Positions 10,822-40,946 of a DNA stretch of 42,125 nt are shown piece after piece (the stretch's first letter is position 1; the number at the start of each line of letters is the position of its first letter). The notes beneath the pieces are model-generated. The model was not told where the DNA came from. It saw only the letters and a list, made by a program, of their open reading frames with translations, and did not search any database. The DNA is from an uncultured Bacilli bacterium (GTDB taxonomy: Bacteria > Bacillota_I > Bacilli_A > RFN20 > CAG-826): positions 96,602 to 138,726 of the forward strand of contig CAKPJO010000001.1 in NCBI GenBank assembly GCA_934162685.1. Reading direction: 5' to 3'. The position numbers were made by a program, and so were the translations under genes.

Positions 10822-11319
10822 ATGCTAATGGACAAAAGAACAGAAGAATCTTTGAATCGTTTACTTCAAGAGTTGTTTGATGGCAATGCAATTGTAGATA
10901 ATCTAGTATATAATTTAATTTATAATGGATATAATGAATTAGGTGAAGCTATTCATAAACCAGTTGCACACAAATTGCCAGAATGGGCTGATAGTATAAG
11001 TGATTTAATAGATCAAATGGGTGGTCGTTCTAAGAGATATGGTTTAGAAGACCATAAAGACGATATTAAAGAAGTAAAAGATGTTTTTAAAGAATTAAAT
11101 AATTATTTTTTAAGACTTCGTGAAATAGTAAATAAAATAATTGAAGATGTAGATATGGTAGGAGATGCTGAAGTTCGCATTTTCTTGGAGGATTTTTTAA
11201 ACAAAATGGTTATGCCATATGTTAGACAATCCGAAGAATGGGAAAAAGCTTCTGAAAGACTTAGTGCAGATACGTTTAATATTCATATTAAAGAATACAC
11301 TCATTATATAAAAGATTAA
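10822..11319 (+). CDS. hypothetical helical protein (weak Dps/ferritin-like pattern)
   Basis: 165 aa with an AAGGAG RBS. The segments LNRLLQELF..., ...SISDLIDQMGGRS... and ...DAEVRIFLEDFLNKM... follow the layout of Dps four-helix bundles. This is pattern-level only. Confidence 0.5.
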   Translation: MLMDKRTEESLNRLLQELFDGNAIVDNLVYNLIYNGYNELGEAIHKPVAHKLPEWADSISDLIDQMGGRSKRYGLEDHKDDIKEVKDVFKELNNYFLRLREIVNKIIEDVDMVGDAEVRIFLEDFLNKMVMPYVRQSEEWEKASERLSADTFNIHIKEYTHYIKD

Positions 11320-21661: not shown

Positions 21662-21735
21662 GTTATGAGGTATTTATTTTGTAGATACTTGATATCAGAA
21701 GAGAGAGAATATCTAATATAAAGGAGATGTTGAAG

Positions 21736-22203
21736 ATGAATATTATGATGTTAGCAAGTGCGTGGCCTTCAAATGTAGAAGGTTGGGTAACTTTAATTAC
21801 TTTAATTGTTGGTTTAATTGGTGCAATTGCTGCTTTAGTTCCAACTATTATTAAAATGGTTAAAGCATTAAGAGAATTAATTAAAAACAAACAATGGCAA
21901 AAAATTGTTGAATTAGCAATTAATGCAATGAAAGAAGCCGAAGGATTGTTCCAAGAAGGTACAGATAAATTGGAGTATGCAATGAAAACAGTTAAAGCAG
22001 CTTGCAAAGAATTAAATATTGAATTAGATGATCAATTAATAGCGAATTTAGAACAACACATTAGAGATTTAATTTCTTGGCATAATGATATGAATGATGC
22101 CGAAAAAGAAATTTCCGCACAAAAAGCAACTTCTAAAAAAGCTAAAAAACCTTCTAAAAGAGAATATTTAGTTCAAGAAAATATAGAAGACGTAAATAAG
22201 TAG
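21736..22203 (+). CDS. holin-like membrane protein (LL-H holin family-like)
   Basis: One N-terminal TM helix (WVTLITLIVGLIGAIAALVPTII) followed by a helical tail (AINAMKEAEGLFQEGTDKLEYAMKTVKAACKEL), resembling LL-H-type holins. The ATG at 21736 is better spaced from AAGGAG than the ATG at 21727. Confidence 0.5.
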   Translation: MNIMMLASAWPSNVEGWVTLITLIVGLIGAIAALVPTIIKMVKALRELIKNKQWQKIVELAINAMKEAEGLFQEGTDKLEYAMKTVKAACKELNIELDDQLIANLEQHIRDLISWHNDMNDAEKEISAQKATSKKAKKPSKREYLVQENIEDVNK

Positions 22204-23238: not shown

Positions 23239-24258
23239 ATGGGTAAACGTAGTACTATATATAATGATAACTTAACTCAAGATTGGGATAACGTTTCTGA
23301 CAAGAATAAAAAACTTGTGAAAGAATTTATGCAATATTGTAAGAGCACTGATAAAAGTCCTATGACAATGAACCAATATGAACAATGGTTAAGAGTATTT
23401 TTTTGTTGGAATTATAAGGAAAACGGAGATAAGTTCTTTATTGATTTAAAGAAAAGAGATTTTGTTTATTATTTTGGTTATTTACGTGATTTAGGAATGA
23501 GTTCAAATAGAATTGCTTCTTTAAAATCGGCATTAAGTAGTTTATCTTCAGAAATAGAATTATTATGTGAAGATTTGTATCCAAACTTTAGAAATCAATT
23601 AAGAGGTTTAGAACCAGTTCATATTACGGCAGTAAGAGAAAAAACTGTAGTAAGTGGTGATAAATTAGAAGAAATGCTTAGCACTTTAGTAGAGAAAAAA
23701 GAATATCAATTAGCTTGTTATTTAGCTTTGGTATGTTCATCAGGAAGTAGAAAAGCAGAAATGTTACAAATGAAACCAGAATTCTTTGTTCCTGAAAATG
23801 TTCAATTTGAAGGATATATGTATTGTACTCCTAAAATTAGAGCAAAAGGAAGAGGAAAACAAGGGAAGATGATTAATAAATACGTCATTAAAGATGCTTT
23901 TGATCCATATTTTGAGTTATGGATGAAAGAAAGAGAAAAATTCGGCATCAAGTGTGATTCTTTATTTGTAACTAATGTAAATGGAGAATGGAAAAACGCA
24001 AATGTCTCCACAGCAAATCACTTTGCAAAACAAATATCAACAATGTTTAATATTGACTGGTATTCACACTCGGGCAGACATTACTTCTGTACATTATTAA
24101 AAAGTTTAGGATTATCAGACGATATTGTGAGAATAGTATTCTCTTGGGCAAGTGTTGATTTAGTGAGAGTTTATGATGATACTCCAGTATCAGATAAATT
24201 ATTTGAACATATGGTTGCTTTAGGTAAAAAAGCACAAAAAGATAGTGAAGAGAGGTAA
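23239..24258 (+). CDS. tyrosine recombinase / phage integrase family protein
   Basis: N-terminal SAM-like core-binding region. The catalytic pattern reads SSGSRKAEMLQM (Arg), HSGRHYFCT (HxxR), and W..VDLVRVY (Tyr). Confidence 0.7.
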   Translation: MGKRSTIYNDNLTQDWDNVSDKNKKLVKEFMQYCKSTDKSPMTMNQYEQWLRVFFCWNYKENGDKFFIDLKKRDFVYYFGYLRDLGMSSNRIASLKSALSSLSSEIELLCEDLYPNFRNQLRGLEPVHITAVREKTVVSGDKLEEMLSTLVEKKEYQLACYLALVCSSGSRKAEMLQMKPEFFVPENVQFEGYMYCTPKIRAKGRGKQGKMINKYVIKDAFDPYFELWMKEREKFGIKCDSLFVTNVNGEWKNANVSTANHFAKQISTMFNIDWYSHSGRHYFCTLLKSLGLSDDIVRIVFSWASVDLVRVYDDTPVSDKLFEHMVALGKKAQKDSEER

Positions 24259-26134: not shown

Positions 26135-26209
26135 AGGGATGTAGCCAAATGGTAAGGCAACAGACTTTGACTCTGTCACGTGTTGGTTCGAACCCAGCCA
26201 TCCCTGCCA
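26135..26209 (+). tRNA. tRNA-Gln (anticodon UUG) with encoded CCA
   Basis: Hand-folded cloverleaf. Acceptor AGGGATG/CATCCCT, D arm GCC..GGC, anticodon stem ACAGA/TCTGT with loop CTTTGAC (anticodon TTG at 26167-69). T arm GTTGG-TTCGAAC-CCAGC, discriminator G, CCA at 26207-09. Confidence 0.85.
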
Positions 26210-26805: not shown

Positions 26806-29800
26806 ATGGCTGAGAATTATACAGAAAGAGATATGTTTCCCACGGTACAGTCTGGTAAAAAATATAATATTCAAGGTGTTATTAGAGAAACTGAGAGGAT
26901 TATAGAGAATATAAATCAAACATTAGATTGGTTGAGTAGAGCAAAAGATCTTTCTGAAACAGTTTCTACAAAAAACGCTATTGAAGAGCAGCAAAAACAA
27001 CATGTTGCATTACATGAAGAAGTTGTGAAGTTTTTATCATTAATAAAGTCTCCAGCAGAAGAAAATATAAGAGATGAGTTCATTGCGGAAGCATATGATC
27101 AAATAGTTACGGATTTAACTAATGCTCAAAATAGTTTGAATAAATTTAGCAATAAATTCCCAACAGCAGATGCTATTGCAAAAGCAAATGAAACTAAAGC
27201 AGCTAAGAAAAAACAAGATAGTATTCAAAAAATGATTACGGGAATATTTGGTAATCAAAAAACATACAAATCTTTAACTACAAAAGATTTTGAATTCAGA
27301 TTGAAAAAATCAGGATATACCCAAGAAGATTTAAAAAATCTAAAAACAGATTTACGAGAGTTGATGAAAGGATTAGATAAGGACAGCGTAGATTATAAGC
27401 AATATCAGCAAATGATTAAAGGAATAGATAATTATAGCATTAAATTAAAAAGAACTTATACTCCAGAGGTATCACATAAACCAAAAGTCCAATATAAGTC
27501 TGGGGATGCGGCAAAGCGTTATAAAGAACTTGGTGATAATCTTAAAGAAAAACCAAAATCAGAGACAGTTAGGAATATCAGTAAATTATCTTCCTTTAGA
27601 GATAGAGCGGGTAAAACTTATGCTCCTGCACAAAAAAAAGATAAAGATTTAACCCGTAAATCAATTCCTTTTCAAACGGTAAAAAGAGATGTAAAAGCAA
27701 AAGACTTAGGTTCGAGACAATATAAATATTTTGAAATGGATCCTGCTGATCATTTTAGAGGAAAAGATTATAAGGTTTCTAAAAGGGAACAAAAAACTGA
27801 ATTAAAAGAATTAGAGGCTGAAACAGGTCAAACTCCATATGTTGTTTCAAATAGTCAAGTGGCTAGGATGTTCTTACCAACTATTCAAAATAAAAATGAA
27901 ACAAAATATAAGAATAGGTTAAAAGAAGCAGAAAAGAAATTAAAAGAAGCAGAAAAATTACAAGATGAAGATTTAATAGCCTTAAGAAAAAGAGAATATA
28001 TTAGAGTAAGGGGAGCAGGAGTTTCAGAAGGAAATCCTGGAGGTTATGGTACTGCTCAACACGCTCTTTCAGAAGCGTATGCCACAGCATCTTTAAATAG
28101 AAAAAATGCTTGGAATTTACAATTAAAAGATTTTAGAGATTTAGATAAATTAGTAGATGAAATGTCTAAAAATCCAATCAAATGGCTTGAAGAACACGGA
28201 GGATTAGATTCCGAGCTAGCCACTTTGTTTACTGTAAATGCAAAGGGACAAATTTTATTAAAAGATACAGCGGCAACAGATATTAAAACTTGGATTTCTG
28301 AAGAAAAAGGAATGAACATTCAAGATACAGAAGTAACCGCTTCAGGTATGTATAAAACAAAAGGCGGAGAATATTTATTAACTCCAGGTCAAAGTGATTT
28401 ATTAGTAGATGAGCGTGGCGAGCTTGTATATGTAGATACTAAATTCAGAAAAGAAACTGTTAGAACTTTAGAAGAATTTACACAAGCAATGGCTGCTATT
28501 TTTTCTTTAAACGCAAAATTAGAGGCAACAGGCGAAGATAGAAGAATAAAAAAAGTTAAATTCGCTCATGTTGAACCAGGTTCTGGTAAAGTTTCTTATA
28601 AAACTGTCGATGTTGGAGAATGGTCTATTAAAGAATATGCTTCTGTATTAGATATTGTGGGGCAGTTGAAATCTGGTAAAATAACACAAGGTCAAGCAAT
28701 AGCCATGCTTCCTCCACATGTTGCGGATATGTTTTGGGAGCAATTAGAGAACACATACGGTTATGGTCCTACTGCTAAAAAAGGGATGTATTTTATAGGC
28801 CCTGATGCTAGCGCAACTAATAAAGTCGTTAATAAAGAAATGGTGAAAAGAGGGACAAGAGATAAAACTTTAAATAGTCAAGGTTATCAATCTGTACTCA
28901 ATCGTTTTGGTGGTACTGCTGCTATTGAAAAAATGTCAGGTAAAGATTTTGCTGCAAAAGAGAGAATAGAATTTGTGCAAAAAGCTTTAGGAGATTCAGG
29001 TAAAGATATTATTGAAGCAATGAAAACTGGAGATAAAGATAAAGTTCTTCAAGCTTTGGAAGATTATGGGCAAAGACTTAAAGATAATATAACGCAAGTT
29101 ATTTCATATCAAGAATTTTATCGTCCTGCAAAAGGTGATCGTCCAGCAGGAACTACAACAAGAAATAAAATGGTTCAAGAGTGGGCCAGTGCAATGGCGG
29201 CAGGTGATGTCGACCAAGCTATGTCTATAGTTGAAGAATTTTCTGATATTATTAATTCGATAGAAGACCCAGAAGTTCGCAGACGAGTAGCTTATGGAAT
29301 GAGAGCACAAGGAAATAAAATGGTTCAAGAGGGAGATACCAGTGATAATGCAAATTTAATTCGTTTTGCTCAAGCATTAAACAAGAGGGGCAAAGTTAGT
29401 TTTGATTTTGGCGATGTGACTGAAAAGTCTTCTAGAGGAACTAAGCCTTATATTAGAAAAGAGCAACTGCAAGAAATATTAGATAATTTATTTTTATATT
29501 TAAGCGGAGAACCTTCCAGATTATCAGGGTTAAGTGATGCTCAAGCAAAAAAAATTCTGGAAATGTTGCCAGAGGATTTTTCATCTGATGCTGATTTAGA
29601 CGAAATATCTCCTGAATTGATGGAATATTTAGCAGAAAATGTTATTCCTTATTTAGAATCTAACGACCTTGGAGCTGTAAACATAAAAGATTCTACGGAA
29701 GTAGCGGCAGAAAAAGCAAAAATAATAGGATATGGTGACGATCCTGAAGAAAAAGTTGAAGATGAAACAATAACCGCTCAGAAAATTCGTAGTATGTTTA

Positions 29801-32505
29801 AATATAATATTGGCACAAAGACCTTAAGTGACAAAAATTTAATTAATGCAATTAAAGTTATAAATGACCGCGATGCAGACGAAGAGACAAAAAATGCAGC
29901 GTGGGCTGATTTATTTGGTTATATTCAATTTTTACGTCCAAAAGGACCAGAAAGCGCTAATGCTGAAAATTTATCAGATGACGCTAATAAAGCATTAGTG
30001 GAGGGCATTCAAGGATTTGAAAACAAAATTGGTTCTTTATCAGGCCTATCTGACAAAGAAAAACAAAGAGTTTTTAATATCTTAAGACGTTTAGTTGGCG
30101 TTGATCCTATTTCTTATGAAGATACTCCAGAAGATTTGGCAAGAGCTACATTTAGAATGGTTAGTGCTCCTTCAATGGTATATTCGGGACAAGAGACTTT
30201 AACTAAAGAACAAATAGGAGCTTCTAAATGGCAATCAGATTTTGGTACAGCATATAACCAATACGTTAAAAATGCAAAAGATATTGACCAGCAAGATACT
30301 TTTGACATAATTTATAATGTATTACAAGAATCAGGAATGTTAGATAAAGAGCAGAAAGATATTGTTGAGACATATGGTTATGATGCTTGGAATTTAATTA
30401 AAAGATTTAAAATTGCTCATGAATCTTTATCAAAAATGGATTCGAAGCAACAACAACAATTTAAAAATTTGTTTGGAGGAGTATATCAAACTTCTTTAAA
30501 CAAAGAAGATATAGATGATTTATCAGAATCTTTCTGGTATAAAGAAAGAGATGAATCAGGTCAAACATTAGCAGAATTTATGATTGCTACTGGTTTAGGT
30601 CCGACAGATGTTCGTTATGATGATAAAACAGGAAGGTTTGTAGCCTCGGCAAAAGCACCTGGTAATGAAGCAGATATTACTAAAATTGCTAATACTATGC
30701 AAGTTCCAGGAGCAGCTGAAAAAATTAAAAAAGCCAGAAAGGCCGCAAAAACAAATAAAGGTACAACATATAATTCTAATGCTCCACGACAAACTACAAA
30801 AAAACAAGGAAAGAAATATTGGGGAGAATCATTTGGCCAAAGGTATAATTATACAAAAGGGAATAAAAAAATTATAAAAGTCGATGTACCTGGTGCAAGT
30901 CATCCTTTATTATATAGCGGAGATGCTAACGAAGGAGACCTTGTAGAAGTTCCTTTTGGAAAAGGCACGGCTACTGGTACTGTTATTGGCGAGGCGACAC
31001 AAGATAATTTGTCAGATTTTTCAGCTAACGCTTCGGGTAAATATGAAATTAAGTCTATTTCTAAAATTTTACCTAAATCAGAAAATGCTGTAAAAACGGA
31101 TACAGATGTTAAAATTCCAAGTGGAGGTACTCCTGTTGCGGAGGATTCTTCAAAAGAAAGAAAAGAAGTAGAAGGTTCAAAAGAGCCAGCGACTTCTGGA
31201 ACGGTCACAGGCGATCAAAATATTACAATTAATGCTAAATTGGTTACATTGCAAAATCCAACAGGGCAAATAACTGTTAATGGCAATGTGGGATCTGGTT
31301 CATCTTCTTCAAAAACGTCTTATTCTAGCGGAAAAGATGATGATGATAAACAAAGTAAAACAGATAAACAAGAATTACGAGAATTAGAGGTTTTGTATAA
31401 ACAAAGAACTTCTTTAAGATATGATTTAGCAAAATACCAAAAGCGTTATAATTTAACAAGTCCTTTGAGCAGAGAGATTCCTTATCTTGAAGAATATATT
31501 ACTACTCAAAGTGCTGCACTGGAGGACGTTGAAGCAGAGCTTGCTGAAAGAATTAAATCTGGTGGCTTTGCAAAAGATATTATTGAAGATTTAAACAAAA
31601 AATATTCAGATAAAGATATTCGTAATCAATTATTAGTTGGAATGTCACATCAAGGTTCTCAAAATCTTTTCCAACAAATAGGAACATCTTTTAAAAATAT
31701 GTTAGAAAACTTCACTCAAATGGGTGCAGCTTATAAGATTATTGGTATGCTTCGTAATAGTATGAGTAAAATAGTTACCGCAGCTCAACAATTGGATAAA
31801 ACAATGGTTGATTTACGTATCGTAACTGGAAATACTAAAGAAGAAACTAATGAATTAATGAGCAGTTATTCAAAATTAGGTGGAGAATTATCGGCTACAA
31901 CCACTGAAGTTGCAAATGCAGCAAACAGTTGGTTAAGACAAGGTTATTCAATAGGAGAGGTTAATGATTTAATCTCCGCATCAATGCATTTAAGTAAATT
32001 AGGTATGATTGAATCTGGACAAGCAACAGAATACTTAACAAGTATGCTTAAAGGATTTAAGCTTGAAGCAAGTGATGCAATGGATGTTGTTTCTAAATTA
32101 ACTAAAGTTGATATGGAAGCGGCAACTTCAGCAGGTTCTATTGCGGAATCATTAAGACAATTTGCAACAACTGCTCAATTATCAGGTGTTGATATTGATC
32201 AAGCTATTGCAATGGCGACTACAATTATGGATGTTTCTCAAAAAGATGCATCTTCTGTAGGTCACGCCTTAAATACAATGATTGCTAGATACGGTAATGT
32301 TAAAGCTGGTGCTTATACAAGTACTAACTTAAGTGAAGAATCTAGTGATACAACAGAAAAATTAAATGATATTGAAAAAGTTTTAAATAAGATTGGTATT
32401 TCAATGAGAACAACATCATTAGAATTTAGAGATTTTGATGAAGTGTTGGAAGACGTTGCTGCTAAATGGCAAGATTTAGACAATGTCTCACAAAATGCGA
32501 TCGCT
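26806..32505 (+). CDS. tail tape measure protein, exon 1 (1900 codons)
   Basis: GAAGGAGG RBS. From about aa 1650 the TP901-type TMP core is recognisable (QQLDKTMVDLRIVTGNTKEE..ANSWLRQGYS..GHALNTMIARYG). The frame hits TAG at 32506-08 inside this core, and the core continues in another frame at 33203. Confidence 0.8.
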
Positions 32506-33202
32506 TAGAAATAGTTTTGTTATGAACTATTCTATGGGCGGGTTATATAGTAATATATAATATAAACCCTTTGTGATATGCTGGAAGTCCCTTAGAGCTT
32601 TTCTCGCTAACTGAATCCGTGAGGATGAGTCAGAAGTGAAGTAGAAAAGATTGGGTAATCAGCAGGCAGTTTAACTTTTTATAAAAATATATTGTGTATA
32701 ATTGAATAATAGATTATACTAGTATATAAGAAGTTTACGCCTCGACGGTCATCCAGGCATGGAGTAGGTGCAAGTGTACCGAAGCGCAAAGTCCCTATAT
32801 AATAAAATGTTTATTTTATATAGGCGAAAGATATGACCTACGCTTATGAGAAATCATAAGAGATAACGTAACGAGTTATCGCAATATAACGGACAGCTAT
32901 TGCTGGTAAAAAAGTCTTGTGCCAGAACATATAGTGATATATGGCCTCAGCTGAAAAAGAGGTAGAAGAAAACCATATCGGTGAAGGTCCTACAAAGGAT
33001 AATACCGAGGAAAGATTAAAATTGTTATAATTTTAAAATCCGTAGAGACTAAACGTTTTCTATCTTGAAAAAGATAAAGTTATAGTCCAATCTATACATA
33101 TAAATAAAAGTATAGAGTTAAAGAGAAATCTTTAACCGCCATTTATTATAAAATGGTAAAAAAGTCCTCTTTCACGTAGAGGATGAAAAGTAATACAAAT
33201 TG
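32506..33202 (+). ncRNA. group I self-splicing intron, ORF-less (697 nt)
   Basis: The 5' exon ends in U (32505). Exon UCGCU (32501-05) can pair with GGCGG (32537-41) as P1 with a U.G at the splice site, and there is a P1 extension hairpin at 32507-16/32525-33. The core has AGACUAAA (33046-53), a GAAA-capped P8-like hairpin (33061-76) and UAUAGUCC (33081-88), the same arrangement as the Tetrahymena P7/P8/P7' core. P9-like hairpins lie at 33092-115 and 33120-33 (GAAA loop). The only G that permits an open in-frame junction is 33202. Confidence 0.7.
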
Positions 33203-36200
33203 ACAAGACAACGTGAATCGTTCTTAGTTCTCATGGAGAACATGGACAAATATCACGATTTAATTAAAACTTCTGCAGAATCTAAAGGTACTGCGGAAGA
33301 AAAATACTTATCTTATACAGAACAATTAGAAGCAGCACAAAAGAGATTAAATGCTGCTTGGGAAGATATAGCATTAAATGCAGATGTTAATAGTTTCTTA
33401 ACTAAAATTACAGATGTTACTACATTTTTGGTCAAGCATTTACCGACCGTGTTAAAATTAGTAATGAGAACAGTTACAGCACTAAATGCTTATAAATTAC
33501 CTGCTTTATTCGAGTTACCAGAAAAAGTTCAAAAATTACAAGGATTTTTAGGAAAAACAGCAAGTAATATTGTATCGGGTTTTAAATCTTTTATAGACGA
33601 ACATGGAAACTTTAGTTTTGAAAACTTTAAAAATAAGGTAGGCAAAGACATTGATTCTAACTTAACAAAAATGGGAAAATATAGTTCTAAACCTGCTTCC
33701 ATATTGGGAAAATTACAAAATACCATTGTTACTAATATTAAAGCATTAAGAGACAATACCTCTGCAATTAAAGGTGAAACAACTCCTACAGGCATAGATG
33801 ATTTAACTAAAAACAAAATTGATCCTGATAAAGAACAATCTTCAACAGGAGCAGGAAATCTTTGGGCTGGCGCAGCACAATTTGGTTTAAATACTTTAGT
33901 ATCAGGAGCTACTGCTAGTACTATTGGAAGAAATAGAACAACAGGTGAAGACTATGAAATGTCAAATACAGCAGTATGGACTAACAGAATAGCTACAGGA
34001 TTGGCTGGTGGAATAGGTTCTATGATTAATCCTATTTTAGGTCCTATTTTTTCAACAGCTATGGATTTATTTATTTCTAAAGTAATTGGTCCTTTAATTG
34101 ATCGTGTTGATAATTTAATTAAGCATCAAATAGAAGTTGCCGAAAAGAATTTATCTTTGCTTTCTAAAATTGAAACTTCAACTTCTGAATTAGCAAAAAT
34201 TTCAAAAGAAAAAGACACTTATGAAAATTATCAAAAAATTCAAGAAGCATCAGCAGATATGTTAGATGTCTTAAAAGAAGATTCTGATTTATCAAATAGA
34301 TTATTACAAGTAATGTCAGAGCAAGGATACAATTATAAAGATATTTATGCTTTAATGAAAGATTGGAAAGAAGATTCAGATAGTCGTTCTGAAATTTCTA
34401 GACAATTAGATATTGCTACTAAGCAATTAGAATATGAAAATACGATTATTGCTAAACAAAAAGAATTAAGTGAGGCAGACACAATTATTTATCAAAAACA
34501 ATTGTCGTATAATAAAGAAACAGGTGGTTTTGAATATCTAGAAGACACCAACGGTATGGGTATTCAAGAATCTATAAACAATATTAAGTCGGCACTTAAA
34601 TTATTGTCTGATTATAATTATACTGATGAATATGGCCGCGATTACAAGAAGGTTGCAAACTCGCTAGAAGCTTTGTTACAAGAACAAGAATCAAAATTTG
34701 CTAAAATAAATGAAATATATGAGACTCTTAACAAAAATCTTACAGAACAAGCAATATTGGGGGCTAAAACAACTTCAGGAGCATATTTAACAGATTTGAG
34801 TGTTAATCAATTAAAAGATTTAGGTAAAGATGAGATTGTAGATATTGTAACTGAACAAATTCAATCATTAGGTGGATTTAAAGGTTATGATGCTTGGTCA
34901 AAAGAAGGACAAGATATTGTTGCAAGCGTAATTAAAGCTGATGAAAAACTTTATAAAATTTATTCTCAACAAGTTTATACTTTAGATGAAGCGGTTCGTA
35001 AAAACGATCCAGAATTATTAGTACAATTTGCTAATGCGATGGGTGTTACGGTTGATCAATTAGATAGATTGTCGAAAACAATGGGTACTTTAACTTTAGC
35101 AGATTTCTTAAAGACTCCTACTGAAGTTAGAAATTCATTCAATGAATTAAGTTCATTATTTACTTCTTTAGGTTCTTCTTCTGGATTAACAGCAGAGAAT
35201 TTAGAGAAAATTATTAGTGATTATCCTCAATTGCTTGGTGATTTAGGAGATACCCATAAATTAGCAACTGGCATTATTAAGAATATGAATGCCTATAAAG
35301 AATTATACAAAAACACTTTAGTAGATTCTTTATTGGATAATACCTCATATTTTGATTTATTGCAAGACAAATTAACAGAAGCAGGTGCTACCGCTAGTGT
35401 AGATGCTATTAAATCATTAGATGTAAAAACAATTCGTGAATTGATGCGCTCATTGGATAAAATTGACAAAGATGGTGCTATTAAAGCAGCAATAGATGAA
35501 TTATTCGATCAAGATATTACTGCTGATTTTGAAAAATCTTTATTAGAAACTGTTATTAATTATCAATCAAAAGCATACGATAAACAAATTAAAAATCTTG
35601 AAGAGCAAAAAACTGCTTTACAAGAAATTAATAATCAACGTGAATATGAAAACAAGTTAATTGAAGCTCGCAATAAGCTTGAAGATGCTCAAAAAGAGAA
35701 GAAAAAAATTTATAGAGCGGGTATAGGTTTTGTGTATGAATCTGACCAATCTGCTATTTTAGAGGCTCAAAAGAATCTTGAAGATGTAACTAATGAAAAG
35801 AAAATTAGTGAAATTCAAGCACAAATAGACCAGCTTACAGGCGAAAAAGAGCAATTAACTGAACTCCCTGATAAATTAGAGTTAGAAAATTTAAAGACTG
35901 TGTATGAGGCTTGGGCTGAAGAACTTAAAACAAGTAATGGTACTCAAGCTCAAATTTTAGAAAAAATCATTGAAGCATATAAAGGGTTAAATATCTCAAC
36001 TTCAGGAGAGGACGCTCAAAATAGAGTAAATGCGGCTGATAACAACACCCGCACAGGATTTACAAGTTCTTTAAAAGCTCTTAATGATGCAATATCTGCA
36101 CTTGGTAATGATACTAGTACAAGTGAATATGCAAAGTCTGAAAGTCAAATAAATACCGCAGCAGATAAATTGTTTACTGACATAGATACTTTTGTCTCAT

Positions 36201-36970
36201 CGGGTGGTTCTTTAGATTCCACTCCTGAAATTAAAGAATGGTACGAAGCACAAAAATCTGCTAGAAAAGGCTATGATAATTATAAATATATTGATAAATA
36301 TAATCCTATTGTAGAAATGGGAAATACTGGTAAAAAATATAAATTAAAAGGCGATTATCCTAGTTCTTCTTTGTCAAAAGATATCAGCAATCAAATTATT
36401 AGTCATGGTAAAAATTTCTTATATTATAAACCTAATGAAGGTCAATCTAAAATGGATTCTGATGATTTCATTGATAAATATGAAACATTAGAGAACGCAA
36501 TAAATGCTTTGCCTTCAGGAACATTTGTTGCAGACAGTCATAATAAAGATTGGGGAGTTATTTTAAAAGGAAATGATGCTCCAAATGGTGCTGGTATTTA
36601 TAAAGTTCAAAAAGCTGCTAAAGGTTCTTTAGGACTTAAAGGCGGCATGAGTTTAATTAACGAATTAGGAACAGAAGCTTTAGTTACGCCAGGTGGTACG
36701 ATTACATCGTTACCATCAGCAACAGGTGTTGTTCCAGCGGATATTACTAAAAATTTGTGGGCATTAGGCGAAGTGGCTCCTATGTTTGCAAAAGCTATGA
36801 AAACTGGCTTTAGTGATATTCAAGGATTTGGAACTCAAGACAAATCTGTGGACGAATCATTTAACGTCGGAACTGTTAATATGACAGTTAATGCAGATAA
36901 TACATTCGATGTTGACAAATGGGTAAATGAACTTAAAGTTAAAACCGCTTTAAGTCGAAATATCCGATAA
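33203..36970 (+). CDS. tail tape measure protein, exon 2 (1255 codons + stop)
   Basis: It continues the TMP core (TRQRESFLVLMENM...) and has no RBS or ATG of its own. It also has a long coiled-coil region, a Gly-rich hydrophobic segment (LAGGIGSMINPILGPIF) and a C-terminal module shared with ORF 41047. Confidence 0.8.
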   Translation, partial: TRQRESFLVLMENMDKYHDLIKTSAESKGTAEEKYLSYTEQLEAAQKRLNAAWEDIALNADVNSFLTKITDVTTFLVKHLPTVLKLVMRTVTALNAYKLPALFELPEKVQKLQGFLGKTASNIVSGFKSFIDEHGNFSFENFKNKVGKDIDSNLTKMGKYSSKPASILGKLQNTIVTNIKALRDNTSAIKGETTPTGIDDLTKNKIDPDKEQSSTGAGNLWAGAAQFGLNTLVSGATASTIGRNRTTGEDYEMSNTAVWTNRIATGLAGGIGSMINPILGPIFSTAMDLFISKVIGPLIDRVDNLIKHQIEVAEKNLSLLSKIETSTSELAKISKEKDTYENYQKIQEASADMLDVLKEDSDLSNRLLQVMSEQGYNYKDIYALMKDWKEDSDSRSEISRQLDIATKQLEYENTIIAKQKELSEADTIIYQKQLSYNKETGGFEYLEDTNGMGIQESINNIKSALKLLSDYNYTDEYGRDYKKVANSLEALLQEQESKFAKINEIYETLNKNLTEQAILGAKTTSGAYLTDLSVNQLKDLGKDEIVDIVTEQIQSLGGFKGYDAWSKEGQDIVASVIKADEKLYKIYSQQVYTLDEAVRKNDPELLVQFANAMGVTVDQLDRLSKTMGTLTLADFLKTPTEVRNSFNELSSLFTSLGSSSGLTAENLEKIISDYPQLLGDLGDTHKLATGIIKNMNAYKELYKNTLVDSLLDNTSYFDLLQDKLTEAGATASVDAIKSLDVKTIRELMRSLDKIDKDGAIKAAIDELFDQDITADFEKSLLETVINYQSKAYDKQIKNLEEQKTALQEINNQREYENKLIEARNKLEDAQKEKKKIYRAGIGFVYESDQSAILEAQKNLEDVTNEKKISEIQAQIDQLTGEKEQLTELPDKLELENLKTVYEAWAEELKTSNGTQAQILEKIIEAYKGLNISTSGEDAQNRVNAADNNTRTGFTSSLKALNDAISALGNDTSTSEYAKSESQINTAADKLFTDIDTFVSSGGSLDSTPEIKEWYEAQKSARKGYDNYKYIDKYNPIVEMGNTGKKYKLKGDYPSSSLSKDISNQIISHGKNFLYYKPNEGQSKMDSDDFIDKYETLENAINALPSGTFVADSHNKDWGVILKGNDAPNGAGIYKVQKAAKGSLGLKGGMSLINELGTEALVTPGGTITSLPSATGVVPADITKNLWALGEVAPMFAKAMKTGFSDIQGFGTQDKSVDESFNVGTVNMTVNADNTFDVDKWVNELKVKTALSRNIR

Positions 36971-38035: not shown

Positions 38036-39079
38036 ATGAGTATGTATGTTAAGAAAAAAGACGGCACTATTGTTGAAAGTCAATGTGAAACTGTTAAGGT
38101 TACTGAGAATACGTTAAAGAATTTGTTGGATACTACTAAACAGATGCATCATATCGTCGGGTATTCAGCTGTATTATCCAAGGCAATTGATGCTTCACAA
38201 CTATTGAAATTTTCTGATACAGAAAATGTGATTGATATGTCTTATGCTTTTGCAGGTGAGTTATCAAGTAACGACTATAAGTACTATCAGAATAGAATTA
38301 CACATATACCTTTATTAGATACACGTAATGTAACAAATATGGCATATATGTTTGCATTTGTACATTATGAAAATAATAAAGATGGGATTCCTTTATATGA
38401 TACATCAAAAGTTACCGATATGTCGCATCTATTTGAAGGATTTCAATATTTTGCTCTATCTTTTAATTACCCAAATTTTAATACATCAAATGTTACAAAC
38501 ATGGATTATATGTTTAGTGGATTATACTGGAAAGATAATGATAATGCAGAAAAAAAACAAGGCTTTATACTCCCTGATTCATTAGATACACATAATGTGA
38601 CAAGTATGAGCTGTATGTTTTCACCTCAAACAACTAAAGGTAGTATTAATGATGGTCCTTATCGAGTCCCTATGATGGATACATCAAATGTTACAATGAT
38701 GTATAGCATGTTCAATGGATGTTCAGTTTTAAAATCTATCCCCTTATATGATACATCAAAAGCTGAAAACATTTCATATATTTTTAATAAGTGTTCAAAA
38801 TTAACAGAAATTCCTGCATTAAATTTTTCAACTGCGAATTTCGGATATAATATATTTGGAGGTTGTTCGAATCTTGAAGAAATACATTGCACAGGATTAA
38901 AAATATCATTTGATATTCACTATTCAACTAAATTTACAGAATCAGCATTAGTAGAAATATTAAACAATTTAGGAACACCTACATCTTCACAAACATTAAC
39001 AATGGGGGCAACAAACTTGGCAAAATTAACTGATGAAGAAAAAGCAATAGCAACTGATAAAGGTTGGACTTTAAAATAA
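38036..39079 (+). CDS. BspA/DUF285-type leucine-rich-repeat protein (candidate receptor-binding protein)
   Basis: About 8 tandem units of the form (L/Y)DTSNVTNMxxMF..C..L..IP, for example LLDTRNVTNMAYMF, YDTSKVTDMSHLF, FNTSNVTNMDYMF, LDTHNVTSMSCMF, MDTSNVTMMYSMF, YDTSKAENISYIF. Confidence 0.7.
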   Translation: MSMYVKKKDGTIVESQCETVKVTENTLKNLLDTTKQMHHIVGYSAVLSKAIDASQLLKFSDTENVIDMSYAFAGELSSNDYKYYQNRITHIPLLDTRNVTNMAYMFAFVHYENNKDGIPLYDTSKVTDMSHLFEGFQYFALSFNYPNFNTSNVTNMDYMFSGLYWKDNDNAEKKQGFILPDSLDTHNVTSMSCMFSPQTTKGSINDGPYRVPMMDTSNVTMMYSMFNGCSVLKSIPLYDTSKAENISYIFNKCSKLTEIPALNFSTANFGYNIFGGCSNLEEIHCTGLKISFDIHYSTKFTESALVEILNNLGTPTSSQTLTMGATNLAKLTDEEKAIATDKGWTLK

Positions 39080-40034: not shown

Positions 40035-40946
40035 ATGGAAATTAAAGAAGCAAAGCATTGCATTATTCGTGGAGATACATTATACGGTATTCTTTATGTA
40101 CCTGACAAAAATGGAATATTAATTATTCCAAATGGAATTAAAACTATTCGTATGAATGCAATATCAAAAAATAAAGATATTAAAACAGTTGTGTTACCAG
40201 ATGGTTTAGAAGTTATAGGATATGCTGCTTTTGCAGATTGTGTTAATTTAGAATCTATTAATATTCCTAAATCAGTTAAGGAAGTTCATAATGAAGCTTT
40301 TTCTAGATGTACGGCATTAAAAGAAGTTTCTTTTTGGAGTAACACTGGTTTTGGAAAGAATTGCTTTAGAGAATGTGCAGCTTTGTCTAAATTAATTTTA
40401 AATGAGTTTTCAATTGCTAAAGTCTTTTATTTTCCTGTATATAATCAATTTTTAATTAGCGTTCCTATTAAACATCAAATATCAAAAGATATTACTATTT
40501 ACGAAGGACATTTTACAGGGGAAGGATTTCCTGTTGAAATTAGAAAAAGCGCAAAGACTTATGTTGCAGCAGCTATAAAGAATGACAAAGAAGTATTCTG
40601 GTATGATTCTTCTATGAGAAGGGCTGTTGATGGTTGTGTGATAATATTAAAAGAAACAAATCCTTTAGAAATACTTGGTGTTGATATGATTACGGAAGAT
40701 ACTATTATTACCCCAGATCAATTTTCTTTAATTACAGGAATATGTTCAGCTGGTGTAGATTGGTGGTTACAAGAAGTAGGACATACTAGAGACACTAAGT
40801 TTAAAATGGGAGAGTTGTTAGAGTTATTACAAAAAACAACCAGACAAGGTTATAATAGATTGATTATTGCATTGTCTCAAGCTGATAAATATTCTAATTT
40901 ATTAGCAGCTGAGAATGGTGCTGCTATAGACGATAAGGGGGTATAG
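40035..40946 (+). CDS. leucine-rich-repeat (BspA-like LRR_5 type) protein, moron-like
   Basis: The N-terminal half has LRR units (IPNGIKTIRMNAISKNKDIKTVVLPDGLEVIGYAAFADCVNLESINIPKSVKEVHNEAFSRCTALKEVSF). The gene is bracketed by its own promoter and terminator. Confidence 0.6.
   Translation: MEIKEAKHCIIRGDTLYGILYVPDKNGILIIPNGIKTIRMNAISKNKDIKTVVLPDGLEVIGYAAFADCVNLESINIPKSVKEVHNEAFSRCTALKEVSFWSNTGFGKNCFRECAALSKLILNEFSIAKVFYFPVYNQFLISVPIKHQISKDITIYEGHFTGEGFPVEIRKSAKTYVAAAIKNDKEVFWYDSSMRRAVDGCVIILKETNPLEILGVDMITEDTIITPDQFSLITGICSAGVDWWLQEVGHTRDTKFKMGELLELLQKTTRQGYNRLIIALSQADKYSNLLAAENGAAIDDKGV

Follow-up and report, generated by a model that had tools for sequence, protein, structure and literature searches.

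INTRODUCTION

Group I introns of tape measure protein (TMP) genes have been described before, and so have tandem introns with a tiny exon between them; the arrangement is rare. In prophages of the Bacillus cereus group, TMP introns occupy the sites IVS1 to IVS3 (Tourasse and Kolsto 2008, PMC2504315), and that report describes mostly ORF-less introns of IA type at several TMP sites, with presence or absence varying among related phages, related introns sitting at different sites with a re-tuned P1, and different introns sitting at one site. An earlier note on the DNA studied here had treated TMP as an unusual host of phage introns, a view that the 2008 description puts out of date. Among tandem arrangements, PMC10136302 cites introns I2 and I3 of Staphylococcus phage Twort orf142, a highly similar ORF-less IA2 pair around a 23-nt exon, and, in the 23S rRNA of Coxiella burnetii, a very short exon of 34 nt between two group I introns that differ in type. 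Fungal mitochondrial tandem group I modules likewise combine two introns of different types with a very short exon (∼18-nt spacer) (PMC12308204).

Here, we describe a TMP gene in a window of 42,125 nt (the whole stretch of DNA that was analyzed), in which a 697-nt gap very probably consists of two unrelated group I introns (A and B) with a 15-nt exon between them, and not of one intron. The locus resembles Twort orf142 in that two ORF-less group I introns lie in tandem around a very short exon within a protein-coding phage gene, and differs from orf142 in that its exon has 15 nt, its introns are unrelated, and its host gene encodes TMP; splicing here is predicted. It shares the Coxiella and fungal combination of two different intron types around a very short exon, but those cases sit in rRNA or organelle genes, whereas this pair lies in a gene for a phage structural protein. 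The 15-nt exon is shorter than those we found cited for tandem group I introns in a phage (Twort, 23 nt) and a bacterium (Coxiella, 34 nt). Unlike in the B. cereus-group prophages, the host is an uncultured phage of ∼139 kb with a predicted TMP of 3,160 amino acids, and co-occupation of two sites 15 nt apart is not described in PMC2504315.

RESULTS

The TMP gene is interrupted within its most conserved motif.

The upstream TMP open reading frame (26806 to 32508) comprises 1,900 codons and terminates at a TAG (32506-08; ...WQDLDNVSQNAIA*), with a Pfam PhageMin_Tail match to amino acids 1690 to 1899 (profile positions 6 to 195 of 201). The downstream part is read in another frame from 33203 (TRQRESFLVLMENM...), with an in-frame TAA at 33191-93, and inspection of the sequence at the start of exon 3 found neither a Shine-Dalgarno sequence nor an ATG. 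No plus-strand ORF of ≥40 amino acids is present between 32509 and 33199 in the ORF list, and no promoter-like or terminator-like plus-strand sites were seen in the 697-nt interval, both halves of which carry GNRA loops (first half, GUAA, GUGA, and GAAA; second half, GUGA, GAAA, and GAAA). Within the TP901-type TMP domain, the interruption hits the motif with the highest conservation (...Q.AIA|TAIAG|TRQRE.F..LMEN...).

Much of this had been read correctly in the earlier note: the stop in the TMP core, the resumption without ribosome-binding site or ATG, the missing ORF, and the GNRA-capped hairpins were all borne out, as were the pairing of exon UCGCU with GGCGG through a U.G pair and a P7/P8/P7' motif at 33046-33088. 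The outer boundaries that it placed, a 5' splice site after U32505 and a 3' splice site after G33202, are right. Its broader proposals, that ORF-less group I intron RNA interrupts the TMP gene and that the full-length protein would depend on splicing, are supported as well. The features of the locus are collected in Table 1.

TABLE 1 Coordinates of the TMP exons and of the predicted introns and their elements in the window
Feature	Position	Strand	Description
TMP exon 1	26806..32505	+	1,900 codons, ending ...AAT GCG ATC GCT (NAIA); from the ORF list
Intron A	32506..32892	+	387 nt; predicted ORF-less group I intron, IA2-like with putative P7.1/P7.2; terminal G32892
Intron A guide sequence	32537..32541	+	GGCGG; P1 with exon UCGCU (32501-05), 5/5 pairs
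93-nt block in intron A	32576..32668	+	J3/4, P4, P5 with extension, P4', P6 5' strand
Intron A P7 5' strand	32747..32752	+	GGUCAU; pairs with 32833-32838, 6/6
Intron A P7 3' strand	32833..32838	+	AUGACC; pairs with 32747-32752
Micro-exon	32893..32907	+	15 nt, ACAGCTATTGCTGGT = TAIAG, frame of exon 1, to which it is directly joined in sister phages
Intron B	32908..33202	+	295 nt; predicted ORF-less group I intron, compact core without P7.1/P7.2, P9.1-P9.3; terminal G33202
Intron B guide sequence	32914..32925	+	GUCUUGU (P10), then GCCAG (P1)
Intron B catalytic core	33047..33087	+	P7 GACUA 33047-51, P3' GUUUUC 33055-60, P8 33061-76, P7' UAGUC 33083-87
TMP exon 3	33203..36970	+	1,255 codons plus stop; first codons ACA AGA CAA CGT (TRQR...)

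A 15-nt micro-exon lies between two introns.

In the earlier note, the TMP core resumed only after 697 nt. We found 15 core bases, encoding TAIAG in the frame of exon 1, inside the interval. When the product of a single-intron splice was compared by tblastn with five intron-less phage TMPs, a gap of 4 to 5 residues appeared at or beside the junction in all five, and the TAIAG micro-exon fills this gap; the note had proposed such an alignment to confirm the junction residues. A 5-residue block of the form xxx[A/G]G is present at the site in 32/32 metagenomic homologs that span the junction. The mRNA junction expected in the note (...GCGATCGCT|ACAAGACAACG...) is that of the exon-skipped product and would delete TAIAG, a block found in every homolog examined; a one-intron model costs TMP five invariant residues.

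The boundaries are given by relatives that carry only one of the introns or neither. In the window, exon 1 ends with U32505, which marks the 5' splice site of intron A. In sister phages (∼90% identical), exon 1 runs straight on into ACAGCT..., and the sequence reads ...ATCGCTACAGCTATTGCTGGT|AAAAAAGTC..., with intron A absent and intron B kept; exactly 32506-32892 is missing from L008 to L015 and from L018 to L021. The phages of P0009 type (∼90% amino acid identity; 24 contigs read, with the 8 places shown being L008 to L015) have the sequence TCACAAAATGCAATCGCTACAGCTATTGCTGGT|AAAAAAGTCTTG..., without intron A and with a nearly identical intron B, and in the P0001/2/3-type homologs both introns are absent, so that empty insertion sites exist in relatives of the window phage. 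The bases flanking the insertion of intron A are unambiguous in the comparison with the sister phages, which set its omega-G, G32892, independently. Since these sister phages lack intron A and retain intron B, all four splice sites are fixed. From the sequence, the junctions expected in the mature mRNA are ...GCGATCGCT|ACAGCTATTGCTGGT|ACAAGACAACG....

The single ribozyme of the earlier note was thus assembled from parts of two: its P1 strand at 32537-41 belongs to intron A and its P7/P8/P7' motif at 33046-88 to intron B. Instead of one 697-nt intron, two independent, unrelated introns of 387 and 295 nt surround the micro-exon, and no sequence similarity was found between introns A and B. The micro-exon is invisible to ORF-based annotation and detectable only against intron-less homologs. 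Gene callers or RefSeq have split TMPs of this kind into two or three "genes" in the contig of the window, in the Clostridioides difficile phage AR1086-1, and in Clostridium botulinum phage-plasmids.

Both introns score below the Rfam gathering threshold.

A search with the group I intron model, proposed in the earlier note, succeeded in part. With the RF00028 gathering score of 50 bits, which is a classifier threshold and not a biochemical criterion, Rfam reported only a tRNA and zero group I introns for the whole window, and an E-value scan of the whole window gave zero intron matches, the speed filters dropping both cores. Both cores were recovered only by focused scans of sub-windows, as sub-threshold but full-length matches of 33 to 34 bits: intron A with 33.4 bits (E value of 1.7e-6; model positions 1 to 253; 32522-32860) and intron B with 34.1 bits (E value of 3.2e-7; model positions 1 to 253; 32898-33103). 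The relatives at site B in L010, L019, L023, L037, and L038 likewise fall below the gathering score, and relatives of intron A exceed it (AR1086-1 with 110.1 bits, intron D with 90.7 bits, and intron C with 61.6 bits).

Among 50,697 phage records, neither the locus nor 25 kb of the window had a near relative by Megablast, and in IMG/VR the TMP segment had no close relative and three DNA patterns remained unmatched. Pfam detected no homing endonuclease gene in the window, both introns of which are ORF-less.

Intron A resembles IA2 introns and has an atypical P7.

The helices P1 to P9.1 of intron A are fully paired (P3 7/7, P4 4/4, P5 3/3, P6 4/4, and P7 6/6, with all of P8 and P9 paired), the 5' splice site carries the wobble U32505.G32537, and the minimum free energy (MFE) fold has a z-score of −4.56. 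P3 to P7 pair column by column with those of the relatives that score above the gathering threshold. In these alignment columns, GGUCAU takes the place of the relatives' GACUAU; the two differ by three double compensatory changes, while the first pair is still G-C. This P7 is the putative guanosine-binding helix. The Rfam alignment had placed the P7 5' strand elsewhere (AGAUUA, at ∼32709); we rejected this placement, as GGUCAU forms all six pairs and aligns with the P7 of the relatives. Two short hairpins (32753-62 and 32767-80) are candidates for P7.1 and P7.2, and an insertion between P7 and P3' is likewise found in AR1086-1 and in introns C and D.

J8/7 of intron A has 8 nt, and no convincing P10 with the 3' exon was seen (2/7 positions pair). 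Many group I introns can do without P10. Because P7 departs from GACUA/UAGUC, J8/7 is 8 nt long, and P10 is not detectable, splicing of intron A may be reduced or protein assisted.

A known relative of intron A is the bona fide group I intron of Clostridioides phage AR1086-1 (OR397124.1; L006, 2986-3280), which lies in the same TMP motif, is 84% identical to intron A over 60 nt in P2 to P4, and has a similar IA2-like layout with putative P7.1/P7.2. It differs in its canonical P7 (GACUA/UAGUC), in being a single intron, which is unannotated in the record, and in its position inside an Ile codon (...AEAI^SGK...), with site A lying 8 nt upstream of it and site B 7 nt downstream. Intron A itself was found in this phage lineage only, and its covariation support comes from its relatives. 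A scan of JGI metagenomes with a 19-mer for further copies of intron A returned 12 loci (L025 to L036), all of them chance matches with which blastn finds nothing else in common; they were discarded as relatives.

Intron B is supported by covariation with its exons and within its core.

Intron B has a compact core: the sequence AGACUAAA, a GAAA-capped hairpin, and UAUAGUCC make up the core at 33046-33088, the strands of P8 are 33061-66 and 33071-76, J8/7 is near the consensus, and all of P1 to P9 is paired (MFE fold z-score of −6.52). Its P1 is formed by GCCAG and the last 5 nt of the micro-exon (CUGGU, 32903-07), with 5/5 pairs and the splice-site wobble U32907.G32921, and its P10 by GUCUUGU and ACAAGAC at the start of exon 3 (33203-09), with 7/7 pairs. 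L023 shows covariation with the exons for both helices (CGGGU/GCUCG for P1; GUGAGAC/GUCUCAU for P10), and P1 covaries in L037 and L038, too.

Across seven sequences, 77 pairs were compared, treating P3/P7 as a pseudoknot; 96.9% of cells were paired and 18 pairs had changed on both sides, with P3 and P7 invariant in 7/7. None of 500 shuffles matched the real covariation, and slid controls reached 35 to 45% pairing with 0 to 2 double-change pairs.

The same intron occupies this site in L008 to L021, L023, L024, L037, and L038. The insertion point (...AG|T.Q...) is shared with the C. botulinum phage-plasmids pRSJ2_2 and pNPD1_1 and with contigs L023 and L024, and the introns at site B there follow the same P1 logic (CAGGU/GCCUG) and have a similar 3' end. 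Some of the copies elsewhere contain an ORF (HNH-repeat ORFs in the more distant copies of L023 and L024; 306 amino acids in pNPD1_1), whereas the copy in the window has none. RefSeq annotates the TMP exons of the C. botulinum phage-plasmids as two separate genes.

Two self-splicing events would restore a 3,160-codon frame.

In the reading that we favor, the TMP gene and introns A and B would be transcribed as one RNA, in which each intron would form a complete ribozyme directed by a separate guide sequence. Each would excise itself via two guanosine-initiated transesterifications, and exon 1, the micro-exon, and exon 3 would be joined into a single 3,160-codon frame. The anatomy of the DNA, its folds and covariation, and the exact boundaries, which come from relatives with one intron or none, are observations; from these structures and from TMP being essential, we infer that both introns splice. 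Inclusion of the micro-exon is probably the main outcome over its skipping, since introns A and B are unlike each other and the P10 of intron B itself holds exon 3.

Removal of the 697 nt as one unit, as a composite intron or by constitutive exon skipping, would yield a TMP without TAIAG and would keep the reading frame, because the micro-exon has 15 nt. Tandem group I introns are documented to skip the exon between them in Twort orf142 (23-nt exon) and the Coxiella 23S rRNA (34-nt exon) (PMC10136302), and some fungal tandem modules are spliced as one unit (PMC12308204). We nevertheless consider this very unlikely here. None of the 32 homologs that span the site lacks the 5-residue block, nor does any of the five intron-less phage TMPs, and the sister phages with intron B alone treat the 15 nt as an ordinary exon. 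Each half of the interval has a complete core, a P1, and a terminal G of its own, and introns A and B are unrelated, whereas the near-identical Twort pair is thought to form a joint ribozyme. Moreover, the guide region of intron A offers no P10 for exon 3, which that of intron B binds at 7/7 positions. A skipped TMP isoform may still arise as a minor product.

An alternative is a locus that is not spliced at all, in which decayed introns or a spacer would separate two polypeptides of 1,900 and ∼1,245 amino acids, the second starting at ATG 33233 or TTG 33200. Gene callers and RefSeq do annotate such loci as separate genes, both introns lie under the Rfam gathering score, and the P7 of intron A is atypical. 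However, the break splits a conserved motif through which 32 homologs read without interruption, neither 33200 nor 33233 has a Shine-Dalgarno sequence ahead of it, and the micro-exon, which would be untranslated, shows codon-level conservation with the sister phages. P7 of intron A retains 6/6 pairs despite three double changes, and in intron B P1 and P10 track exon changes, along with the 18 compensatory pairs. Together, the paired changes, the conservation of the micro-exon, and the continuity of the motif indicate selection for a working ribozyme, and we regard two separate polypeptides as highly improbable.

A mis-joining of intron A during assembly, for example, via a 93-nt block identical in intron C of co-occurring sister phages (93/93), could be imagined for data that are all metagenomic, but it is extremely unlikely: the exact 1,900-amino-acid product of exon 1, ending at the intron A boundary, is present on at least four contigs; L022, from a contig of 139 kb, is identical to the window across 9,703 nt; the insertion is base exact with intact exon flanks and a matching guide sequence; and joining via the 93-nt block would not give the chimera a P1 and a P3 that fit the site. 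Readthrough of the TAG, suggested by a distant homolog (Phass-1) filed in a code-15 clade, was dismissed, as a TAA follows 15 codons on and ORFs of the window stop at TAG; translational bypass, inteins, and group II introns appear unlikely for inserts that are noncoding, 295 to 387 nt long, and folded into group I cores.

DISCUSSION

The 93-nt block is identical to that of intron C (L010), which occupies another TMP site in sister phages, and the flanks of the block are only ∼20 to 50% identical between introns A and C. Judged from this pattern, the block, which covers P4 to P6, could have been exchanged recently, as an entire ribozyme domain, between introns that diverge elsewhere. If true, such an exchange would speak for modular recombination of ribozymes that compete for a landing zone of ∼33 nt and four sites. 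A wider scenario, in which fractional skipping of the micro-exon or cross-folding of the ribozymes gives two TMP isoforms or a timed assembly and the P4-P6 domain swap has occurred as well, appears improbable as a whole. Were skipping or mutual folding to take place, two TMP isoforms, of which one would lack the invariant TAIAG, or a tail assembly timed by splicing, would follow.

As a compact natural system, the locus allows one to ask what the minimum exon between neighboring ribozymes is, how a conserved target is contested or shared among introns, and whether ribozyme domains recombine between introns. Two further candidates did not add to the sites in this motif: a supposed split site in P0041 (L039) is a mere frameshift in the contig, and the annotated TMP intron of Lactobacillus phage JCL1032 lies elsewhere in the gene (∼12.1 to 12.4 kb of the record), at neither site A nor site B. 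Across Firmicute phages, the ∼33 nt of the TMP motif hold at least four different insertion sites, and some of the introns in this stretch encode HNH or GIY-YIG endonucleases.

Two predicted group I introns flank a 15-nucleotide exon in the tape measure gene

The window corresponds to the structural module of a phage with AT-rich DNA (31% G+C), in which the tape measure protein (TMP) gene lies in two long frames. In the first open reading frame (ORF), residues 1690-1899 match the Pfam domain PhageMin_Tail (profile positions 6-195 of 201). Between the two TMP frames, no plus-strand ORF of ≥40 codons and no plus-strand promoter-like or terminator-like sites were found. The earlier note had read this gap as a single 697-nt group I intron with the junction NAIA/TRQRE; the sequence motifs that it quoted are all present where it placed them, but the single-intron reading is wrong, the gap consisting of intron A, a 15-nt micro-exon, and intron B.

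The product joined as NAIA/TRQRE was aligned to five intron-less TMPs (Bacillus phages Stahl and SPbeta, Psychrobacillus phage Perkons, Enterococcus phage VRE9_3, and gut phage Phass-1). Each alignment spanned the junction in one piece, and each also showed a gap of 4 to 5 residues at or beside it, where A..(V/I)(A/G)G precedes T.Q in the homologs. These residues are absent from the joined product because they are encoded within the supposed intron: nucleotides 32893-32907 read ACA GCT ATT GCT GGT in the frame of exon 1, with G32892 preceding and U32907 as the last base. When the three-exon junction was used as the query against 5.8 billion proteins, a five-residue xxx[A/G]G block was found in 32 of 32 homologs spanning the site, the closest being ...QNAIATAMAGTRQRESFLVLMENMDKY.... 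The homologs P0009 (90% identical; on at least 24 contigs) and P0021 terminate with ...NAIATAIAGKKVLCQNI and a stop, and KKVLCQNI-stop is the translation of 32908-32934, indicating that exon 1 there continues through the 15 nt directly into the second intron. The DNA of these sister phages (P0009-type loci L008-L015) reads TCACAAAATGCAATCGCTACAGCTATTGCTGGT/AAAAAAGTCTTG..., so that 32506-32892 is exactly absent and a near-identical copy of 32908-33202 is kept. Since the bases on the two sides of the insertion differ, all four splice sites are fixed.

Coding pieces and introns of the TMP gene in the window, and insertion sites in the TMP motif
Feature	Position	Strand	Remarks
First TMP ORF (exon 1 + stop)	26806-32508	+	1900 codons; ends ...WQDLDNVSQNAIA-TAG
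Exon 1 end	32505	+	Fixed by sister-phage DNA
Intron A	32506-32892	+	387 nt
Micro-exon	32893-32907	+	15 nt; TAIAG
Intron B	32908-33202	+	295 nt
Exon 3 start	33203	+	Fixed by sister-phage DNA
Second long TMP frame	open 33200-36970	+	From 33203 reads TRQRESFLVLMENM...
Site A	offset 0		Window
AR1086-1 site	+8 from site A, inside Ile codon		C. difficile phage AR1086-1
Site B	+15 from site A		Window, sister phages, L023/L024, C. botulinum phage-plasmids pRSJ2_2 and pNPD1_1
L040 site	about +32 from site A (about 17 nt past site B)		L040, GIY-YIG-like ORF

Structure and relatives of the two introns

Rfam scans of the whole window, at the gathering score (50 bits for RF00028) or by E value, detected neither intron; group I matches appeared in focused scans, as two separate full-length RF00028 alignments to 32522-32860 (33.4 bits, E = 1.7e-6; intron A) and 32898-33103 (34.1 bits, E = 3.2e-7; intron B). 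In thermodynamic folding, most of the helices appeared in each intron (z-scores of −4.56 for A and −6.52 for B). Both halves of the gap are, as judged from sequence, complete group I ribozymes, and they share no sequence similarity with each other.

Intron B has P1 (CUGGU/GCCAG, with the splice-site pair U32907.G32921), P10 (ACAAGAC/GUCUUGU, 7/7 pairs), and all of P2, P2.1, and P3-P9.3, including the P3/P7 pseudoknot (P7, GACUA/UAGUC). An alignment of seven versions, from the window, two sister lineages, and the more distant locus L023 minus its ORF, had 96.9% paired cells and both-sided changes in 18 of 77 pairs; this level was reached in 0 of 500 shuffles, and partner-slid controls gave 35 to 45% pairing with 0 to 2 both-sided-change pairs. 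P1 and P10 covary with the exons (CGGGU/GCUCG and GUGAGAC/GUCUCAU in L023), and P1 of the C. botulinum site-B copies (CAGGU/GCCUG) again tracks the exon.

In intron A, P1 (UCGCU/GGCGG) is extended by a hairpin, P2 is capped by a GUAA loop, and within P3-P6 both P5 and P6 have long extensions; P7 is separated from P3′ by two short hairpins, and P8, P9 (capped by GAAA), P9.1, and a final G complete the intron. Three homologs of this intron scored above the Rfam gathering score in local search: the AR1086-1 TMP intron (C. difficile phage; 110.1 bits), intron D of P0021-type phages (90.7 bits), and intron C of P0009-type phages (61.6 bits). In a MAFFT alignment, its P3-P7 occupy the same columns as those of the relatives and are paired throughout, with CUUUGUG/CGCAAAG in P3 versus CCACUUG/CAAGUGG in intron C and GGUCAU/AUGACC in P7 versus GACUAU/AUAGUC, the latter amounting to three consecutive double compensatory changes after a kept G-C pair. 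The Rfam placement of the P7 5′ strand is wrong, and this, together with the long P6 extension, explains the low Rfam score. Nucleotides 32576-32668 (P4, P5, and the P6 5′ strand) are identical in 93 of 93 positions to intron C (L010, ∼2716-2808), whereas the remainder is strongly diverged (flanks about 20 to 50% identical), and the two introns lie at different TMP sites in different phages. From these comparisons, intron A is a mosaic, and the 93-nt block looks like a domain-sized recombination tract.

Predicted splicing of the TMP transcript

We propose that the TMP gene would be transcribed into one RNA, from which introns A and B would each excise themselves independently, joining the exons as ...GCGAUCGCU/ACAGCUAUUGCUGGU/ACAAGACAACG.... 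The 15-nt exon would be long enough because its final five bases suffice for intron B, and intron A shows no need of a P10. We infer that splicing occurs, since compensatory change upholds the helices of each intron, tail assembly requires TMP, at least four contigs encode exactly the exon-1 protein, and no translation start signals lie upstream of exon 3. Inclusion of the micro-exon is expected to be the dominant outcome, as introns A and B are not related to each other, the 7-bp P10 of intron B holds exon 3, and no pairing of the intron A guide region with exon 3 is possible. Skipping of the micro-exon, which remains in frame and yields the junction predicted in the earlier note, may give a minor isoform without TAIAG. 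The TMP spliced with the micro-exon has 3160 residues, with similar totals in sister phages. Tail length usually amounts to about 0.15 nm per TMP residue; on this basis the tail would be unusually long, at roughly 470 nm.

The two-intron arrangement is real and clearly delimited in the sequence, and its kind is already known. PMC10136302 describes tandem group I introns around a 23-nt exon, with exon skipping, in Twort orf142 and around a 34-nt exon in Coxiella 23S rRNA, both longer than the exon here; tandem group I modules about 18 nt apart also occur in fungal mitochondria (PMC12308204). According to PMC2504315, TMP genes of B. cereus-group prophages carry group I introns (IA1/IA2) at three sites, with relatives at different sites having re-tuned P1 and one site hosting different introns. 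Lactobacillus phage JCL1032 also has a TMP intron, but at another position. In the literature searched, we found no report of tandem introns around a micro-exon in a TMP gene. Of specialist interest are the very short exon, the unrelated flanking ribozymes, the dense insertion sites in the motif, the re-coded P7 of intron A, and the 93-nt block that it shares with an intron located elsewhere in TMP. Annotation based on a one-intron model, or solely on ORF calls, yields the wrong protein.

Insertion sites in related TMP genes

Comparison with relatives marks the TMP motif as an intron hot spot, with four insertion points in about 33 nt. The 295-nt AR1086-1 intron (L006, OR397124.1 31576-31870) is unannotated and interrupts the Ile codon in ...AEAI^SGKNH..., the TMP there being given as two "hypothetical protein" coding sequences. 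In more distant TMPs, site-B introns carry HNH_repeat (PF18780) ORFs in the P6 loop (L023, 2878-3498, 206 aa; L024, 2197-3186, 329 aa), which are probably homing endonucleases. The C. botulinum plasmids L037 (NZ_CP013709.1) and L038 (NZ_CP013295.1) have TMP split at site B (...SLAG/KMCA-stop ... /THQRENFLVLM); RefSeq lists two genes, a 208-aa "tape measure protein" and an "NlpC/P60" or "transglycosylase" protein. In pNPD1_1, the intron copy contains a 306-aa ORF, and Rfam gave no match on L037 or L038 at E < 0.001. L040 (∼1665-2013) has an intron-like insert after ...TRQRE(V), with a typical AAUUGCUGGAAA P4 region and a GIY-YIG-like ORF (MSAGIYQIRN...YIGS); the contig stops within the insert. 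A further candidate, L039 (∼1975-1985; SRR19416393_10538), is a single-base frameshift, the motif going on in another frame.

Sister phages have extra TMP introns upstream in the same domain, namely group I introns C (L010 2632-2992; ...EYLT/SMLKGF..., about aa 1745) and D (L019 2686-2930; ...ANDWL/RQGY..., about aa 1710). The window has no intron at either site.

Other features of the window

Shortly before the TMP gene, among tail genes, lies a tRNA-Gln (anticodon UUG; 26135-26209, 65 bits). Interspersed with the structural genes are those for a tyrosine integrase (23239-24258; Phage_integrase, E = 1.2e-9), a holin (21727-22203; Holin_LLH), and a ferritin-like protein (10822-11319), and downstream of TMP lie those for a DUF285 protein (38036-39079) and a BspA-type LRR protein (40035-40946). 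The 33 large plus-strand ORFs stop with TAA (23) or TAG (10) and never with TGA, which neither terminates nor interrupts any called ORF. In the relative L016/L017, in-frame TGA occurs at positions that are Trp in homologs (...IVK(TGA)IAK..., ...IPS(TGA)LSL...; P0002, ...MPSWIST...), indicating that TGA is read there as Trp (code 4-like). Organisms with recoded TGA may be among the hosts of this phage group.
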